Assembly (NCBI GenBank): GCA_964016885.1
Contig: OZ024742.1
Coordinates: 253,580,001 to 253,644,000, forward strand
DNA length: 64,000 nucleotides
Reading direction: 5' to 3'
Source of the DNA: Eledone cirrhosa
Lineage: Eukaryota
Below, piece after piece: positions 14,541 through 61,014 of the stretch. The position numbers were made by a program, and so were the translations under genes. The stretch's first letter is position 1, and each line of letters starts with the position of its first letter. Under the pieces are notes generated by a model. That model saw only the letters and a list, made by a program, of their open reading frames with translations. It did not search any database and was not told where the DNA came from.

Positions 14541-15074
14541 CTAACAAAGTTTTTTTGTTGCACATCTGCAACATCATCAGTGGTACGATTATCATGTTCC
14601 CACCTATTGTGTTGTATTGTAATGTTCACGCCATTTTAATTTAATTAATTTATTTATTTATTTTGTCTCCATCTTTGCGCATGTGTTTGCGTGTGTGTAT
14701 AATGTTTGGTGTGTGTGTTCGCGTGTGGGTGTATGTGTTTTGGCTTTTGTTTTTGTTTTTGTATTCTATCTTTGTTTACTAGTGTGTGTTTATAAGTGTT
14801 TGTTGTTATTGTACTTGTGTATATATTTCTTTCTTTCTTTATTTATTTATATTTCTCTTAAGTCAGTATTGTTTGTTTCGGTAAGGTTATTGTTGTTATT
14901 CCATTTGTTTTTTCTGTTTAACTTTGGTTTTCTAGGCTCTATTTCGCTTGCTTCTCTGCCTACTTGTTGGGTCATTTCTATGTTTAGATATTATTTTAAT
15001 TTCTATGTTGTCTATATTACTGTCATGTCTTTGTCTGGCATGTTCGTATAGTACAGAACCATTTTTTTGTCTAT

Positions 15075-15700
15075 TTAATTCCCCCAGTGTTGGTCTATTC
15101 TTTCTCCTATGCTTCGAGCTGTCTCACCTATGTATGTCGTTGTCATGTTTCTGCAAGTACCCTCTGTACATATTATGCTATAGACTACATTTCTAGTTTT
15201 ACAGTTTATCTGGAGGTTCACTTTACATATAACACATTTCTTATTAGTACAGTAGGTTTTCTTAAAGGGGTATGTTTTGCTGATCAGGAATTTCATGGTA
15301 GTTCCTAGCTTTTCTACCGCTTTAATCTTTAAGTGGGTCTTTCTTAGGGACTTTCTACATTGGTTAGCTAATTTCCCCATAGAGGTAGCATCCACGAACA
15401 TGACACTCTGGTATCTCCGGTTGTCGTACCATGAGGTGGCTTTCCCTATCTTATGTTTAGTCCTGTCTAAGCTATTCCATGATTTGCTCCTGTATAATGA
15501 GCAAATTCCTTTCATGTCCGTTTCTATGAGGGTCTTATACTTCTCCGTGGCTCCTTTGTATACTCCGATTCTGTCTCTTTGGTTGTAGCCAGAGAACTGC
15601 TTGCGGTTGATGAAGTGTTGGATGTGTCTTTCCATTTCAGTTGGGTCGCACACGTGGGGCACGTTCTCCATCACTCGTACCATGTTTGCGATCAGAATAT
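15075..15700 (-). pseudogene. Penelope-like element C-terminal fragment (end of RT, Cys-rich linker, GIY-YIG endonuclease)
   Basis: CTNKKCVIC..CKTRNVVYSIIC..YIGETARSIGERIDQH is a GIY-YIG motif; the ORF is 5'-truncated. Confidence 0.85.
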
Positions 15701-15803
15701 TAAACCAAAGAGATATGGTTTTAGGAAGCCGTAGCTATGCAAACACCGGGGTGGGTGGGTGGATAACGCCCTCTGGTGATGTCCAGCAGAAGCAAGGGGG
15801 ACA

Positions 15804-15847
15804 ACCGTCTATGCATTTCAGGCTTAACTGGCCTTCGTCAGGACGGT
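15804..15847 (-). ncRNA. Minimal type I hammerhead ribozyme, intact consensus
   Basis: ACCGTC-CTGACGA-AGGC(CAGTTAA)GCCT-GAAA-TGCA-TA-GACGGT; palindromic stem III ATGCAT. Confidence 0.88.
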
Positions 15848-16021
15848 CCCTCCCACCGCTTGCGACTGCTGGACTAGGAGACAGGCGAGAATATAAACTT
15901 TTCTCGTCTGTGTAAATGAGGTGATTAATCTCATTGGCATATGAAGCTGCATAAGTTGGCTCAACTTATAATAAAAAAGAAATAGTTTCGCTTCAAGCAT
16001 AGCTTTATACAATATGTTTGG

Positions 16022-16065
16022 ACCGTCCTGACGAAGTCCAGTTAAGCCTGAAATGCATAGACGGT
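16022..16065 (+). ncRNA. Minimal type I hammerhead ribozyme, copy 2
   Basis: ACCGTC-CTGACGA-AGTC(CAGTTAA)GCCT-GAAA-TGCA-TA-GACGGT; one stem II mismatch. Confidence 0.8.
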
Positions 16066-16262
16066 TGATACGAAATATTTATACATATTGTATAAAGCTA
16101 TGCTTGAAGCGAAATCCTATTTCTTTTTTATTATTTTATTATAAGTTGAGCCAACTTATGTAGCTTCATATGCAAATGAGATTAATCACCTCATTTACAC
16201 AGACGAGAAAAGTATATATTCTCGCCTGTCTCCTAGTCCAGCAGTCGCAAGGGGTGGGAGGG

Positions 16263-16306
16263 ACCGTCCTGACGAAGGCCAGTTAAGCCCGAAATGCATA
16301 GACAGT
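16263..16306 (+). ncRNA. Minimal type I hammerhead ribozyme, copy 3
   Basis: ACCGTC-CTGACGA-AGGC(CAGTTAA)GCCC-GAAA-TGCA-TA-GACAGT; one mismatch each in stems I and II. Confidence 0.75.
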
Positions 16307-30334: not shown

Positions 30335-30385
30335 TTTTATTATACATATTTCAGAGGTTCAACAGTACGTCCTCGTCAGACAAAA
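30335..30385 (-). ncRNA. Candidate minimal type I hammerhead ribozyme at the end of an AT-rich Penelope-like relic (~30335-31050)
   Basis: TTTTGT-CTGACGA-GGA..TCT-GAAA-TATGTA-TA-ATAAAA; stem II is short. Confidence 0.6.
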
Positions 30386-31601: not shown

Positions 31602-32619
31602 TATAAAATAATAGATTCAAACATGCTAAAGTTAAATAGATACATATATATAAAAGAGTGTAAAGGCATGAATTATTCACAGTTCAAAATAAATAATCTA
31701 AAAATTAAAAAGTTATCTAAAAATTAGGTATAGAGAGATACAGAGAGATATATATAGATATATATTAAGTATTAGTGATACAGTATACTTTTGGTAAATG
31801 ATAACCATTATAATCTTATATAATAGATTTCAACGTGCTACAGTTAAATACATACATATATATAAGAAAAATAATAATAAATGCATGGATAATTCAGAGT
31901 TTAAAATAAGGTCCGTAAAAATTTACAGTTTGGATATTTGCACTATATTTGAATCATGGATAGAATACTTGGCAACTTGATACCACTTAAAGCCAAGGAA
32001 ACTCACAAAACTGACAGGTTCAGCTCAACTTACAGGATAAAGTATTATGCACTGGTTGATAAGGAGGACAGGACCAGGTATGCAGATACTAATGTATCCA
32101 AATTTAGAAAACTCTCAGATCAAACCAAGGACATCAAAATGGAGTGGAAACTTTTCAGTTTGGCAGTTTCTCCTTCAACTATTTAATGCTGCAGGTGAAA
32201 ACATTTTGGTATAGTGCCAGGTGGCAAGAGGAGCCCATGGTTCAATCCAAGCAAAGAAGAAGGCTTGGAAATAAGTCTTTTTTGCACTTGTGGCACAAGC
32301 ATGTTCAAAACGTCACAGTAGAGACAGTACAGACATTTAAAATTGAGACATGGGCAGAGTTTGGGATTAAACTGGAATCTGTCTTTAGATAAGCAAATAA
32401 AGTATTCTGACTTTGCAATAAGAAGTCCCCTCCACTCTTACTATCAGGAACACATCAGGGGTTATTCTTACTTTAGAAAGGTGCATCCTTGAAAGATGGA
32501 GAGAATATTTTGTTGATATCCTAACTCGATACAACATCTTCTGAGGTACATGAGGTGCATCTAGGAGTAATGACTAAGCTCTCAAAAGCTGAGGTCATCA
32601 GAGCAATCAAAGTGCTCAA

Positions 32620-33790
32620 ATAAGGCAAATGAAAACTGCTTACATTAATAAAAACTCAAACAATCCATGGTTTATTATCAACTCTATTATAAAGAATTTT
32701 AGAATGTCCCGGCTTTCTGCGAATGAGACCATCTTCAACAAACATGCAGGCTACTATAACAAAGTATTCAGAAGGAGCAGATTCAATAATACAATCAAAT
32801 GTTTTATCTCAGACATGAGTAAACCACAGCTATTTGGAAAGGGTTTAAACTTGAGATTAAAGAAGCACAGCCATATGAATACAGATAATGCAGGAGTAAT
32901 GGAAACACATGATCAAATGAACTCGGAAACTAACAGAACTACAAATGATAAACAACTAGAAACCAACAATACCACCATACCAAAATGACATCGTTCCATA
33001 ACACATCTCTGTTATAACCCTCCATACAGTATCCAGGTCAAAACGAAAATCTCCAACTTTTCTTTAAATTCATAGATAAAAACTTTCCTCCTTCTCATAG
33101 ATACCATAAGATCCTGAACAAATGAACCATAGGTTCCCTTATTCTACTAATATAAATCTTGAGAACTTCATTACTAGATTAAATCTTAAACATTTTTACA
33201 CCTATAACAAAACAACCCTCCAACACATGAATAGATAGATGGAACCAACATAAAAAGAAATGGTTACAACTTCACCCAACCTTGCAATAACAACAACAAA
33301 CACATATAACTAACTCAGTAAGCACTCAAATTAATTTTATTCACACCCCTTACAACACCCCTCACACACACCAACATCTTGAGCAAAACCAAACACACAT
33401 AAAAATTGTAACTGTAGACAACCAGAAAAATAACCTTCAAAGAGAAATATCTATACAGAAATATGATAGATGAGTGTGAGATTAATTTGACCTCAAGTAT
33501 GTATAAATATATTGGAGCAACCTCAATTGAAAAGAAAAGCCACTATATGTGCATCATACTCATTAAAGAGCCCAAACTTACAAAAATCAACTGAGTTTGT
33601 GAGAAGATCTGGCAATTAAACATTGAAATTGACTACAAAATTTTGTGGTCAATTGTTCAATCAGCAAGACCTAATTAGGGAGAGTGAAGGTAACTTGATC
33701 TATGCTCAGTCAAACTGGATATAATAATTAGAAACAACCTATGAAACTCCAAACATGACTTGGTCTTCAATTGTCAACATTAAAAGATTC
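32620..33790 (+). pseudogene. Decayed Penelope-like element (RT C-terminus to GIY-YIG)
   Basis: YINKNSNNP..SRLSANETIFN; YNPPYSIQVKTKI; DKNFPPSHRYHKILN; CNCRQ; YKYIGATS, spread across frameshifts. Confidence 0.75.
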
Positions 33791-53275: not shown

Positions 53276-56200
53276 TCATCATCATCATCATCATCAACGT
53301 TTAACGTCCGTGTTCCACGCTTGCATGGGTTTGGACGGGGGTAGTCCCACTTGAGGCAAGAGTGATTGTCTTGCTCGCATAGGACTGTCTGGCAGGTTTT
53401 CTACAGTTGGATGCCCTTCCTAACACCAACCACATTTACAGTGTGGGTCTGGGAGGTTTTTACCGTGTTGCCTACACGGCCACATTACAGCGTGGACTGT
53501 GTGTTTTTTTGTCGTGACACCTACACGATCTCATTTGTTTCGGCCTCGATGGCGCGGCACCAACATAACTTTACATAGAACGGGGTGGTGTGGATCGGGT
53601 GGGGGTGGTGGTGGTGGGACGGGGTGTATTTTGTTAGAGATGCCTACTGGCTGGAGTAGGTTTTACTATATATTTAGGTAAGGCGGGTCTTCTCTGTTAC
53701 TGAGTACCGCCAAAGGTCTCGGTCCAGTGACATTGTCTTGGAGAGGTGTAAGTGTGTGATGTCGGAGTTTATCAGCTCGTCCCAGGTTTTTCTAGGTCTG
53801 CCTATTCCGTGACTACCGTCTATCTTTATTGCCCTGCACTTTGTTATACAGCTATCGACTTTCATGCGCATCACGTGTCCATACCAACGTAGTCTTCTCT
53901 CGAGTAAACAACATCTGATCCCTCTTATCTCTAATTTTTTCCTTAGTTCGTTTATGCTTTGCCGTTCACGTATATTACTGTTACACATCCAGCGGAGCAT
54001 GCAAGCTTCGTTCCTCTCTAGTCTGCGTATATCCTCTGCACACAATGCCCAGGTCTCACTGCCATGCAGCATTGCTGTTCGTATGCAGGCATCGTACAAC
54101 CTGCCTTTCATTTTTAGTGAGAACCCTTTAGCAGCTAATAGTGGTATAAGCTCTCTGAACTTTTTCCAACCAGTTCTGACTCTAGCTACAGTACTTTCAG
54201 AGCACCCTCCCCCACTGCTGATTTTATCGCCCAGGTAACGGAAGCTGTCCACTATTTCTATAGAACCCTCTGCGCAATTGAAAGAGCTAGTAGTTTGTGG
54301 GCACTTGCTGCTACTTATTGCACCAGAGCACCGGCCACATGTAAAATCTATGTTCTTAGTTAGCTTACCTGTGATCCCACTACATCTTTTATGCACCCAT
54401 ACTTTGCATTTAGGACATAAAATGGAGTTTCTACCTACGCCTTTCCTACACACCGAGCACGACCATTTCCCAGAAGGGACCGCCGCCTTGTTTTCTTTCC
54501 TACAAACTAGTACTTTGGTCTTAGCCAGGTTAATTTTAAGTCCTTTTGACTCTAGGCCGTGCTTCCATGTTTGGAATTTCTTCTCTAGCTCGGCCATTGA
54601 TTCCGCTATGAGTGTCAGGTCGTCTGCGTATAGGAGTTCCCATGGGCAGCCTGTCTTGAACTCCTCTGTTATAGCCTGAAGGGCAATAATAAATAGTAGT
54701 GGACTGAGAACAGAGCCCTGATGGACGCCAACTTTTACGCTAAACTCTTCACTATATTCGTTGTTAATTCTAACCTTGCTGACTGTTTCTTTATACATGG
54801 CTTGTATAGCCCTCACAAGCCATTCGTCAACGCCTAGTTTTCTAAGAGCCCACCAGATAATGGAGCGGGGGACTCTGTCGAAGGCTTTCTCCAAGTCGAC
54901 AAAAGCTAAGTAGAGGGGTTTACCTTTAGCTAGGTACTTCTCCTGTAGTTGTCGTACTATGAAAAGAGCGTCTGTGGTACTTTTGCCTGACACAAACCCG
55001 AACTGCATTTCATCTAGGTCAATTCTCTCTCTGATTAGTTGCGCTATTACTCTTTCCGTGACCTTCATGACCTGGTCGATTAATTTAATGCCTCTATAGT
55101 TACTCCTATCTAGGGCGTCTCCTTTACCCTTATAACAGTTAACGATGATGCTGCTATGCCAGTCCTTCGGAACAACCCCATTCTGTACGACTTGGTTAAC
55201 TATGCGGGTGACCATGGTGTGTCCCACCGTGCCAGATGCCTTCAGCATCTCAGCAACTATTTCCGAAGGCCCAGCCGCCTTACCAGTCTTCATATCCTTG
55301 ATTGCCTTACTTATTATACTCCCCTCGACTAACACTGCTGGTCCCTCTATTGGGTCGATATGGGGGAGACTGCCTTTCTCCCAATTATTCTCCTCATTTA
55401 GAAGCCTTTCATAGTGACACTTCCAAGCTACCTTCTTATCAGCGTCGGTGATGGCAAGTGTGCCATCGTCGTTTAGTACACACTTCTCCCCGACAATATC
55501 ACGGTTTTCCTTGACGCATTGCCTAGCAATCCTGAACACCTCACGTTTTTGGTCATCGCGTTGTAGAACATGCTTGAACTTTCTTTCCTCAGCTTCCCTT
55601 CTTGCTAAGTACACTTGTCTCCTAGCTTCCCTCCTGGCCACTTGATAGTCCTCTCTACTTCCCCCATCCCGCCATACTTTCCAAGCCTGCTTTTTGGCCT
55701 TAATTGACCCCTCCACCTTACTGTTCCACCACCATGTTACTCTCCTCCTGCCTACAGGCCTGCTCCAGCCACAGACCTCGTCTGTCGCCAACAGCAGGTT
55801 TGCTTTCAGAAATTCCCACTCTCCCTCTATATTGTCCGACTCTAAATGTTCTTCCTTACTGTCGAAAGCATCAAGTAATATGCTTTGAAATTTATTCCTG
55901 GCTGTGGGGTCCTTTAGCTTCCATATTTTCCTCCTGAGGATAGTCCTCTTCTGTTGTCGAGTACGTCTCGTCCTGACTATGAGGTCGCTAATTATCAGTC
56001 TATGTTGGGAGGTGCATTCTTCATGGGGGAGAGATTTAGTGTTAACAACAGACACTCTGTCACGTCTTCTGGTAAGGATATAATCTACCTGGCTTGTGTG
56101 TTCCCCGGATCTATAGGTGATCAGGTGATTGTCACGTTTTTTGAAGTTAGTGTTACAGATAGTTAGGTTATTTGCATCACAGAATTCCAGGATTCTGGAG

Positions 56201-57010
56201 CCTTCCTCATTTCTAGTACCAAACCCATAGCCTCCATGGATTTCGTCGTAGCCGTCACAATGTTGTCCAACGTGACCATTTAGGTCGCCTGCGATAATTA
56301 TATAGTCACTGTCGGATATTTGGGAGGTAGTTAGCATCAGTGTCTCATAGAATCTGTCTTTTATAGTGCCGGGCAGTCCGGATTGGGGTGCGTACGCAGA
56401 TATTACTGTCACCGTAGTTCTATTGAGGACAAGTCGTATTTTAATTATTCTGTCGTTCACTCTATTTACGTCTATTATCTTATCTGCCCACTTTTCTGCT
56501 ACCATGATTCCTACTCCACCCAGCCCATCGTCGTTTCCCACCCAGAAAAGCTTATAACATCGTTTTTTACCCTCAATGAACCTAGCAGACCCACCCCTCC
56601 ACCTGGTCTCTTGAATACAACAAACATCGACCTCCTTACGTTCAAGCATTTCTACAACCTCGTTAGCGCGACCCTTTAGGGTGCCTACATTTATGGTACC
56701 AACTCTGAAGTTTTGGATTGCGTTTGGGGGTTGGGGGCGGTGAGGGGCGGGGGGCGATGGGGTTATGTTAGCCGTCCGCGGTCGAAACAATGAGGAGTGC
56801 TCGCATTCTCGTCCAAGGGGTGAATTTGTCTTTATCTTTGGCATTGTCGCTGAGCGTCCAGATTTTTCTCTCTCACCTCCACTCTCCAGGATTCCGCAGT
56901 CCATCCATCCATCATATATCGTATATCGAAAGGCAACCAGGCAAGCGATAGTATAGGCCTCTGGTTTCTGATTGGTCCGCGTAATAATACTGGTGATGCG
57001 TGGGGGCTCT
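53276..57010 (-). mobile_element. Apparently full-length RTE-clade LINE (RTE-a), about 3.7 kb
   Basis: Single intact ORF, short 5' region, ~380-nt 3' UTR and (GAT)n tail; (TA)n on both sides. Confidence 0.93.
53674..56904 (-). CDS. RTE polyprotein: APE endonuclease, reverse transcriptase and embedded PHD-type finger (1076 aa; true start may be the downstream MPKIK)
   Basis: APE: TINVGTL, CIQETRW, SAYAPQ, GDLNGHVG, VDYIL, SQH. RT: KGKGD..NYRGI, QFGF, FVDLEKAFD, GVHQGSVLSP, LLYADD, FRYLG. No stops or frameshifts. Confidence 0.95.
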   Translation of the reverse strand: MDCGILESGGEREKSGRSATMPKIKTNSPLGRECEHSSLFRPRTANITPSPPAPHRPQPPNAIQNFRVGTINVGTLKGRANEVVEMLERKEVDVCCIQETRWRGGSARFIEGKKRCYKLFWVGNDDGLGGVGIMVAEKWADKIIDVNRVNDRIIKIRLVLNRTTVTVISAYAPQSGLPGTIKDRFYETLMLTTSQISDSDYIIIAGDLNGHVGQHCDGYDEIHGGYGFGTRNEEGSRILEFCDANNLTICNTNFKKRDNHLITYRSGEHTSQVDYILTRRRDRVSVVNTKSLPHEECTSQHRLIISDLIVRTRRTRQQKRTILRRKIWKLKDPTARNKFQSILLDAFDSKEEHLESDNIEGEWEFLKANLLLATDEVCGWSRPVGRRRVTWWWNSKVEGSIKAKKQAWKVWRDGGSREDYQVARREARRQVYLARREAEERKFKHVLQRDDQKREVFRIARQCVKENRDIVGEKCVLNDDGTLAITDADKKVAWKCHYERLLNEENNWEKGSLPHIDPIEGPAVLVEGSIISKAIKDMKTGKAAGPSEIVAEMLKASGTVGHTMVTRIVNQVVQNGVVPKDWHSSIIVNCYKGKGDALDRSNYRGIKLIDQVMKVTERVIAQLIRERIDLDEMQFGFVSGKSTTDALFIVRQLQEKYLAKGKPLYLAFVDLEKAFDRVPRSIIWWALRKLGVDEWLVRAIQAMYKETVSKVRINNEYSEEFSVKVGVHQGSVLSPLLFIIALQAITEEFKTGCPWELLYADDLTLIAESMAELEKKFQTWKHGLESKGLKINLAKTKVLVCRKENKAAVPSGKWSCSVCRKGVGRNSILCPKCKVWVHKRCSGITGKLTKNIDFTCGRCSGAISSSKCPQTTSSFNCAEGSIEIVDSFRYLGDKISSGGGCSESTVARVRTGWKKFRELIPLLAAKGFSLKMKGRLYDACIRTAMLHGSETWALCAEDIRRLERNEACMLRWMCNSNIRERQSINELRKKLEIRGIRCCLLERRLRWYGHVMRMKVDSCITKCRAIKIDGSHGIGRPRKTWDELINSDITHLHLSKTMSLDRDLWRYSVTEKTRLT

Positions 57011-57331
57011 GTATATATATATATATATTTACTTCAATGTTTACATATTGGAGGCTCATTCTTTAGTGACTACAATCCCACACAAAGCCAACAGAAGGTA
57101 TATATATCTTATTATATAAAATATATAAAACACATGGCAAAATGGCATACTCCTTCCTATGTACTCAGAGTTTCCCAGAGCAAGCTGCTCTTATTGCTGC
57201 TTCGTTCAACTTTCCATTATTACTGACATATGAAGCAGTAATAACATCAGCTTGCCTCAGGAAATTCTAAGTATCTATGAAAATATGTGCCAGTTTGCTA
57301 TGTGTTTTATACCATATATATATATATATAC

Positions 57332-57406
<75 letters not shown>

Positions 57407-57427
57407 TTGGTGCTCTGAAAGAGTGAT

Positions 57428-57767
57428 GTATATGTGAATGTATATATAGTGTATTTGGTAATACACTGTATGCTTAATTAAAAGCATGTTGAAGACCTTA
57501 CGCTATTGTTTTAAAGTAGTGACTATGTCACTTACTTCTTTTTTCAGGAATCCAACATTCATAATTTTCAACAGGCAAAGGGAGTGCTAAGCTCTGAGGA
57601 ATACCAACAGTATGAAACAGAGATCTGTCAGCTTATCTCCCTTTGTTTATTGAAAAGAGAAGTAAGTGACATAGTTACTACTTTAAAACAGTAGCGTAAG
57701 GTCTTCAAAATGCTTTTAATTAAACATACAGTGTATTGCAAAATACACTATATATACATTCATATAT
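57428..57767. repeat. ~340-bp fold-back element (arms ~57428-57546 and ~57651-57767) enclosing a hammerhead
   Basis: Arms are near-perfect reverse complements; flanked by (TA)n. Confidence 0.9.
57588..57635 (+). ncRNA. Type I hammerhead ribozyme, fully canonical; predicted cleavage after C57629
   Basis: TAAGCT-CTGAGGA-ATAC(CAACA)GTAT-GAAA-CAG(AGAT)CTG-TC-AGCTTA; stem I extends via 57565-57584 pairing with 57637-57656. Confidence 0.9.
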
Positions 57768-57779
57768 ATATATATAACG

Positions 57780-57910
57780 AAGAAGGTGTGGTAAGGAACC
57801 AGATGGACCATAATGTACCAGAGTACTTAATACTTAGGGTAGTAAAGTGGGTAATAGGAAAATGTTAGACCCCTTCGGCAGAGCTCAAGCCGTTTCGACG
57901 GCTATTTCTG
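57780..57910 (-). repeat. Dispersed short repeat family (also ~1973-2045, ~27265-27292, ~60960-61095), possibly a Penelope-like terminus
   Basis: Shared CTACTACCCTAAGTATTGAGTACTCTGGTGCGTTATGGTCCA.CTGGT..CTTACCACA, ending at (TA)n. Confidence 0.6.
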
Positions 57911-57924
57911 TATATATATATATA

Positions 57925-58250
57925 TCATCATCATCATCATTTTATGTCCGCTTTTCCCTGTTTGCAAGGGTTGGATGGGAATTGATTCTGGCTTGATTTC
58001 TACAGCTGGATGCCCTTCCTAACACCAACCTTATTTACAGTGAGTGGTGGGTGCTCTTTTTGCCGTGGCACTTCCACGACCACTTTGCAGTGGAATGATA
58101 TGGACCCCAGTCACTATCATCTCATTTCTACAGCTTATGTGAAATAAAGTGTCTTGCTCAAGGTAACAACACATCACCCAGTCTGTGAATTGAACTCACA
58201 ACCTTTCGATTGCAAGGCCAATGCTCTAACCACTAAGCCATGTGCCTCCA
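57925..58250 (-). mobile_element. Full-length CORE-SINE family A
   Basis: Head to (GAT)n tail present; inserted in (TA)n. Confidence 0.88.
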
Positions 58251-58261
58251 TATATATATAT

Positions 58262-58738
58262 AGCCTATTTGTTCATCTACTACCACCAACCCTAAGGATT
58301 TATACTGCCCCTTTTCATTCTTAACAATGGTCAATTTCAACCTGGTTATAAAACCTTACTTATTCATATGTATGTTTTTTTTGTATTCTTCAATAAACAA
58401 AACTCATTATTTCTGAAGACGGCTGGTAGTGAAGACGTATGTATTTTTTTCTCACTATGATATTTTGTAATATGTTTTACATAGATCAATAATTGAATGA
58501 ACATACAGAGGACTACCCCCCAGAAACGATCGTAAAATAATGTGTTTTACTATGAATTAACAGTTTTGTGTTTAATTTCATTGTTTTAATATTTCTATTT
58601 TGACTCTGTATCCAATTGAATTATATCGTTGATAAAAATTTTGTATTTTAAACTTTGCTTCACAACATCTTCTACATACGGATTACATTGAGTTCTTTAT
58701 ATGGTTTAGACCCTACCGTTGAGTGGTAGATTTATCTC

Positions 58739-58779
<41 letters not shown>

Positions 58780-59220
58780 ATGCTTTGGGAGGGTCATGTT
58801 GCCAATAAGAAACACAAGCACAAGTTGCTTTCACTCCAATTTATCAGAAATAATGAGTTTTGTTTATTGAAGAATACAATAAAAACATACATATGAATAA
58901 GTAAGGTTTTATAACCAGGTTGAAATTGACCATTGTTAAGAATGGAAAGGGGCAGTATAAATCCTTAAGGTTGGTGGTAGTAGATGAATAAATAGGCCAT
59001 CAGTGGATAAGGTATCAAATGTCTTTTAAGAAAAGAAATGAAAGTTGTTAGTGTAAATGAGTTTAGGCATATTGTATATAAAAGTATTGATGGTCAAAGA
59101 AGATTACGGTTGGAGGAGAAGGGGTACTGAGATTAGTACATCAAGTAGAATGGAATAGAACAATCTTAAAAAGTTAGTTATTTCTTTGTTGGAAGGAATA
59201 ATTTGTTCTAAAAATATATA
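58262..59220. mobile_element. Penelope-like pseudo-LTR relic with inverted copy (58262-58416 versus 58843-58998)
   Basis: ~155-bp near-perfect inverted repeat ending exactly at the hammerhead core TTTCTGA; related tandem copies at 62835-63284. Confidence 0.65.
58405..58542 (+). ncRNA. Type I hammerhead ribozyme with ~100-nt stem II region
   Basis: CATTATTT-CTGAAGA-CGGCTGGTAGT..ACTACCCCCCA-GAAA-CGATCG-TA-AAATAATG; 8-bp stem I; palindromic stem III; stem II closing pair is mismatched. Confidence 0.75.
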
Positions 59221-60652: not shown

Positions 60653-60866
60653 GAGATGCGAGAAAAACCACAAACCCGCCAGCTCAACTCTACTTTTGAA
60701 AAGCACAAGAACTGCGAAACCGGTAAAGGAACCAAATAAATATATTTAAAAAAAAAAAGACTCCAGTTGCATTTTCGATTTCATCTTTTTTCCTTATATT
60801 TTCATTCGCGTAGGGCACCTCGTTTTTTTTTTTTTTCATTTTGTAAAAAACCTCACTATATATAGT

Positions 60867-61014
60867 AACAAGTAGGACCCCGACGGCTGAGCTCAAGCTG
60901 TTTCGACGGCTAATTCTGGACTAAAAAAAAAAAAATTTTTTTTTAAATTATTTTTTTTAGTCCAGAATTAGCCGTCGAAACGGTTTGAGCTCAACCGTCA
61001 GGGTCCTACTTGTT
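60867..61014. repeat. Fold-back inverted repeat (~63-bp arms, A/T spacer)
   Basis: AACAAGTAGGACCC..TTCTGGACTAAAAAAAA versus TTTTTTTTAGTCCAGAA..GGGTCCTACTTGTT. Confidence 0.85.

Follow-up and report, generated by a model that had tools for sequence, protein, structure and literature searches.

Within the window, the whole 64,000-nucleotide stretch of Eledone cirrhosa DNA that was analysed (contig OZ024742.1, positions 253,580,001 to 253,644,000), the fold-back at 57401-57775 reads from its sequence as two back-to-back partial copies of a 317-nt repeat that carries a hammerhead ribozyme. This fold-back is the usual insertion form of the family, with an inner junction that differs nearly every time. 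The window copy is very probably a two-armed retrozyme copy inserted in (TA)n by a Penelope-like reverse transcriptase (RT) that primed on both sides of a break. Monomer positions are counted from the first base 3′ of the cut site (m1). The features of the locus are as follows.

57337-57400, no strand: left (TA)n tract, inferred target site
57401-57546, minus strand: inverted arm running from m168 back to m22 and starting at the long end E2 (L001 1355-1501, 95% identical to the L032 monomer)
57401-57429, minus strand: "tail" of about 29 nt at one end only (m168 to m140), with two peaks of 3′ ends in the family
57545-57548, no strand: inner arm junction, unique to the locus (one genome match at ≤2 mismatches)
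57548-57768, plus strand: forward arm from m237 to the short end E1 at m139-142, ribozyme and cut site included (L001 1503-1723, 93%)
57565-57656, plus strand: type I hammerhead whose stem I is extended by pairing of 57565-57584 with 57637-57656
57574-57579, plus strand: three hypervariable A/G positions (G at 57574 and 57575, A at 57579), each facing a U that is unchanged
57594-57629, plus strand: catalytic core with stems II and III, predicted cut after C57629
57730-57749, plus strand: short hairpin just upstream of E1, retained with changed sequence in a 310-nt sister family
57765-57776, no strand: right (TA)n tract, read from the sequence

The hammerhead was first read directly and with a structure scanner. 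Stem I has 6 bp (57588-57593/57630-57635) and is followed by the CUGAGGA box (57594-57600), a stem II of 4 bp (57601-57604/57610-57613) with the 5-nt loop CAACA, the GAAA motif (57614-57617) and a stem III of 4 bp (57617-57620/57625-57628) with the 4-nt loop AGAU; C17 is 57629. The scanner recovered this hammerhead at stems of 6, 4 and at least 4 bp, and 30 locally shuffled windows yielded no match whatever the stringency. The catalytic nucleotides, the 6-bp stem I, the 4-bp stem II and the closed stem III described by the first-pass annotation are thus all present. Outside stem I, a 3×1 internal loop leads to an extension of about 20 bp, which corresponds to the continuation of some 20 positions claimed there; this extension is a family-wide trait, whereas the long arms are not. 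The contrast drawn with the dimer-dependent minimal motif also holds, stem III having 4 bp vs 1-2 bp in such motifs.

The Rfam search that had been proposed as a check was negative. No hammerhead family was returned at the gathering score, nor at E≤10 over 4.7 kb, nor for the 106-nt core; the miRNA matches obtained are generic hairpins that score under the gathering threshold and were rejected. At the base of stem II, the window copy and subfamily A have an A-U pair and subfamily B a G-C pair; canonical hammerheads typically have G10.1-C11.1 at this place (PMC4209133). The active fold lies 0.7 kcal/mol above the minimum free energy and makes up about 3.5% of the secondary-structure ensemble, calculated without tertiary contacts, and both values are equal with or without the long arms. 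The geometry in the window fits a predicted contact between loops 1 and 2.

Comparison between copies shows that the ribozyme is conserved as a structure: A-U is replaced by G-C at the base of stem II in the second subfamily, N7 varies freely (G, T, A or C), and in more distant subfamilies stems I and II are altered on both strands. In a set of 12 hand-picked copies, 11 of 19 pairs have changed on both sides. The corresponding score was reached by none of 500 shuffles, and slid controls drop from 0.417 to at most 0.156; this figure is not a probability because the 12 rows are related sequences, in which stem III is invariant. Judged on sequence, the hammerhead is real and maintained as a structure, and self-cleavage is predicted.

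The stem I extension is altered in a particular manner on its 5′ strand. A>G changes reach 10.5% (138/1314) there vs 1.0% in the rest of the monomer, and T>C changes on the partner strand amount to 1.5%. The A>G changes are concentrated at the three sites listed above, and all eight A/G combinations are present among 56 copies. Of ten within-locus pairs, five have matching patterns (14% expected); L027 and L101 show a difference at a true A/G site. These hot-spots look like candidate scars of A-to-I editing, the RNA being edited before reverse transcription. Alternatively, they could be G-U-tolerated variants of several source copies that were mixed by template switching.

The 36-nt core has 302 matches in the genome at ≤1 mismatch, and a 23-nt motif common to a wider clade has 1959. 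In the reference locus L032 the monomer measures 317 nt between two head-to-tail cores; it has no ORF and a GC content of about 33%. Direct-repeat pairs of cores occur in L032, L107 and L149, and in other copies what lies upstream of the ribozyme leads back into the sequence that follows it. By its sequence features the family is a metazoan non-LTR retrozyme, and it would be expressed as linear and circular monomer RNA. It shares with the retrozymes of Cervera and de la Pena 2020 (PMC7229834) the type I hammerhead, the low-GC ORF-less head-to-tail monomer of about 300 nt and the dispersed copies. RNA and circles were shown for their retrozymes and mobilisation by Penelope-like elements (PLEs) was proposed, whereas the 317-nt family is known here from DNA alone. 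Conversely, the word "inverted" does not occur in the main text of that paper, whose passages on these elements describe no two-armed insertion or fixed tail, and the 317-nt family has both. The first-pass annotation had suspected a small non-autonomous retroelement of the retrozyme or Penelope kind that carries a type I hammerhead, and this monomer family bears it out.

The retrozymes of Xenopus (Li, Clavereau and Pollet 2026, bioRxiv 10.64898/2026.07.22.740005) are likewise non-autonomous PLE derivatives, with dispersed monomers and rarer dimers or multimers. In the available part of that preprint, local tandem amplification is suggested, and cleavage was seen in one of nine predicted retrozymes tested. 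Two consecutive intact units, its mark of an "active" retrozyme, are found at other loci of our family and are lacking in the window copy. Family copies mostly hold one or two units, and the arms reach only about 2.1 monomers. Many family variants were present in the assembled contigs of three sequencing runs from one sample; none spans the window stretch and they lack the start and end sites, and the runs, being of unknown type, say nothing on expression. Among the open papers listed on retrozyme and Penelope tails or on Octopus hammerheads, we found no earlier description of the family.

The window copy itself was then measured. Its palindromic arms (57426-57546/57651-57771) are 121 bp long with 9 differences, two of which are family-wide polymorphic sites; an alternative repeat search gave 130 nt at 90%. 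These lengths are close to the inverted arms of about 115 bp claimed before. For the whole region the folding energy is −201 kcal/mol (z = −27). No ORF of ≥120 aa overlaps the fold-back and (TA)n lies on either side, as had also been stated. The forward arm (221 nt) holds the single hammerhead core of this copy. The loop of the E1 hairpin is GCA in the forward arm and ACC in the inverted arm (57448-57467). The inner junction would be a 2-nt microhomology with one later change.

The claim that did not survive is that the rod of about 340 bp is the element. The ribozyme sits in the 317-nt monomer and the arm junction of the window has one match in the 3.0-Gb genome at ≤2 mismatches; the rod is therefore not the replicating unit, and the spreading unit is the tandem monomer. 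It is thus extremely improbable that the ribozyme-capped rod is a distinct small mobile element in itself, even though other ribozyme-capped fold-backs exist: a seamless join through stem I gives 15 genome matches, and at L173, L174, L175 and L150 the arms are about as long as in the window. However, four of these 15 matches are one duplicated locus and two are another, and the seamless rods use a different junction, one to be expected from any self-complementary stem I. The four long-armed rods differ in junction, in loop variant (ACC, GCA, GCC) and in the arrangement of their ends, and the junction of the window together with its arms does not recur at several loci. Moreover, self-cleavage would cost a rod RNA its covalently attached upstream arm. 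The ribozyme-capped rods look like repeated accidents of one mechanism. The first-pass annotation had foreseen that the rod might prove a one-off inversion, the other copies lacking the hairpin and being simply ends of a full Penelope element. Half of this is what we see: the other copies do without the hairpin of the window, their inner junction differing almost everywhere, but they are not ends of a full Penelope (no ORF link), and the inversion is not a one-off.

The surroundings of the fold-back contain several other repeats. An uninterrupted frame of 1119 aa with an APE endonuclease, an RT and a PHD-like finger (53674-57033, minus strand) is a young non-LTR retrotransposon that ends 370 bp from the fold-back, with no link seen between the two. 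A decayed inverted repeat with 102-nt arms at 73% (57102-57333) lies directly left of the (TA)n tract. A very abundant (TA)n-associated repeat is present at 57777-57910 and at 60862-60999, and at 60882-60999 it forms a palindrome with 52-nt arms. Elsewhere in the window, 15800-16300 holds a minimal hammerhead of another family, with its core at 15841 on the minus strand, a 7-bp stem I and a short palindromic stem III; partial copies of it lie in inverted orientation near 16030-16060 and 16270-16300. A weak hammerhead-like match with stems of 7, 3 and 3 bp is found at 30379 on the minus strand.

The insertion form was established on 82 family loci, from which 14 were dropped (same place or adjacent duplicate), leaving 68 mapped loci. 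All 68 were selected by a match to an intact core; the arms were called automatically on a permissive alignment, and a few are merged or split. A mixed alignment with families C and D was out of register and does not enter the counts. Two outward-pointing arms were observed in 50 of the 68 loci. The 3′ ends of the segments cluster at m141-150 (40/138) and m161-170 (41/138), and the 5′ ends are dispersed along the monomer. At 32 two-armed loci both outer ends fall at these fixed sites, E1 and E2, about 29 nt apart: 29 combine one E1 with one E2 (p = 1e-6), the remaining three have two short ends and none has two long ends. L015 and L016, which look like one duplicated insertion, are both included in these counts. 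At the other 18 two-armed loci at least one outer end lies elsewhere. Most family ends are bordered by (TA)n, and a target duplication is unreadable inside such a microsatellite. Unequal ends and a variable inner junction led us to drop an identification as MITE.

The same arrangement is described for PLEs. According to Craig 2021 (PMC8557442), in the part available, an inverted 5′-truncated copy with a tail of 30-40 bp at one end is their pattern, and (TA)n is their target; in Frangieh 2024 (PMC11167929), two internal RT starts delimit the tail, and the enzyme acts in vitro chiefly on uncut RNA. The 317-nt family shows the inverted 5′-truncated copy with a tail at one end, of about 29 nt vs the 30-40 described. 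It thus resembles the EN+ Neptune-type PLEs (PMC8557442, PMC11167929) in these traits, in the (TA)n target, in internal RT starts and in a hammerhead upstream of the starts. It differs from them by the shorter tail, by the lack of an ORF, and by its canonical hammerhead of 6, 4 and 4 bp, where PLEs have the minimal motif (Cervera 2014, PMC4209133).

The polymorphic hairpin loop is identical in the opposite arms at 28 of 30 loci vs 39% expected, which indicates that a single template or source locus usually gave rise to both arms. Two loci depart from this, among them the window copy with ACC in the left arm and GCA in the right, so that a single template fails to explain this copy. Divergence is 6.4% within a locus and 7.2% between loci, a comparison of little power. 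Matching arms, and junctions within the self-complementary stem I, are also predicted if the palindrome arose by DNA snap-back, a cDNA or genomic strand copying itself, instead of two priming events. We consider this very improbable: neither arm of the window contains the other, m140-168 being found in the left alone and m237-m21 in the right alone, which counts against snap-back at this locus. Mutually non-contained arms are likewise read at L029, L046 and L049, the window arms differ at two polymorphic sites, and snap-back does not predict the strict pairing of E1 with E2. Two priming events remain our preferred reading.

We then searched for the element that could supply the RT. Neptune-type PLEs gave 26,491 first-look candidates in the genome, with open frames of ≤1141 aa among the 150 scored. 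An abundant long-ORF element has a 1141-aa ORF with DKS, PPxRP, RYxDD, Cx4CxxC linker and YIGET motifs, a set which we take to be that of a PLE. The L083 protein has no significant Pfam or PDB match, and its PLE identity consequently rests on the motifs. All three long copies examined (L083, L084 and L085) have the inverted layout in (TA)n with one end 45-59 nt longer, a tail to be compared with 29 nt in the 317-nt family. Between this dominant PLE (30 loci) and the 317-nt monomer only TA-rich matches are common. Lacking common sequence, the dominant PLE is a control for the footprint and not a proven partner. A tblastn search of its ORF against the collected loci found no second family below 60% identity, and in the loci mapped no ORF is joined to the older sister family or to other subfamilies. 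The mobilising enzyme is likely a Penelope-like RT, assigned by the insertion footprint only, since no autonomous element with the monomer sequence was found.

This bears on whether a full-length PLE is the origin of the copies, which would then be its terminal repeats in truncated form and no separate non-autonomous family. Such repeats would leave the footprint of autonomous PLEs, and in the available part of Li 2026 the Xenopus retrozymes are homologous to PLE terminal repeats (pLTRs); in our family no homologous pLTR was found for the one PLE family examined (30 loci), and the link is the insertion footprint. Past the tail, the sequence re-enters the monomer or meets microsatellite or unique flank, and the first 100 of 587 matches, inspected by eye, show no recurrent other continuation. 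As no ORF is joined in the mapped loci and neither the ribozyme nor the 3′ end of the dominant PLE is that of the family, we regard the terminal-repeat origin as very improbable.

PLE-like sequences are also found in the window. A fragment of a Neptune-type ORF (Cx4CxxC, YIGET) lies at 15075-15734 on the minus strand, with its 3′ region at 14560-15075. The frame at 32593-32988, which resembles the RT thumb region of a Naiad-type PLE, has no Pfam match. Another two-armed element, with 182-nt arms at 91% identity, occupies 58235-59025; on the minus strand, the end that precedes (TA)n at about 58775-58800 is similar to the dominant PLE at its short end, and the element is likely a non-autonomous or decayed relative. 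Pieces of this element adjoin the family copies L006 and L029.

A sequence of events can be proposed for the retrozyme copy. Tandem copies would be transcribed and the hammerhead would cut after C57629, giving monomers that may circularise. A Neptune-type endonuclease would cleave AT-rich DNA, and the RT would start at two internal points of the RNA, m139 for one side of the break and m168 for the opposite side. Both cDNAs would then extend towards each other and be joined wherever they stop. In the window, one cDNA would have halted on entering the stem I duplex (m22) while the other passed the ribozyme to m237; by geometry, these two stop points place the hammerhead at the apex of the 121-bp palindrome.

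The arms also inform on the template. The cut site is crossed by 98 of the 138 segments, and 42 are longer than one monomer (maximum 663 nt). In a core-independent sample inspected by eye (100 of the 1959 motif matches), 69 arms cross the cut site and 31 stop within 35 nt after it, three of them within 2 nt. Cleaved linear templates would make 5′ ends accumulate at the cut site; no such accumulation was seen (5/138 ends in m311-m10). Reading through the cut site implies that the template had an intact junction, in a circle or an uncut multimer. We give the circle an even chance, the uncut multimer somewhat less than that, and any other template a small one. The frequent stops in the stem I strand would fit the left arm of the window, which ends at m22.

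Sister families share this organisation. The family of L146 (G000:C1:171903500-171908500) has a 310-nt monomer that is 65% identical to the 317-nt monomer, and its tail sequence is conserved between the two. This locus contains nine forward and two reverse cores, in two opposed arms in (TA)n with long arrays. Its stem III has 2 bp and a palindromic loop, in contrast to the 4 bp of the 317-nt family. Eight units compared differ by 0-1 bases, making it much younger than the 317-nt family; such near-identity is compatible with rolling-circle copying but is not proof of it. An older sister family (L116-L145) has a degenerate core, mostly UUGAUAA, and agrees with the 317-nt family in circular permutation, tail and inversions.

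As a hairpin, the fold-back is nothing unusual among such elements. What the family supplies is a set of testable coordinates for retrozyme insertion: the RT starts at m139-142 and m168, the read-through of the cut site, the stops in stem I and the candidate editing scars. Cervera 2020 (PMC7229834) and Li 2026, in the text available, propose mobilisation by PLEs without showing a mechanism, and the in vitro system of Frangieh 2024 (PMC11167929) could test these start coordinates. Taken in full, the proposal is that a Penelope RT primed both sides of the break and copied one ADAR-edited, ribozyme-closed RNA circle from starts 29 nt apart, which we advance tentatively, at rather less than even odds. 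If true, it would be evidence from the genome that retrozyme mobilisation includes the circRNA step that has been proposed. The older clade would add a series of sister families with a constant RT start region, among which the hammerhead shifted between a stem III of the dimer type and one of the monomer type.
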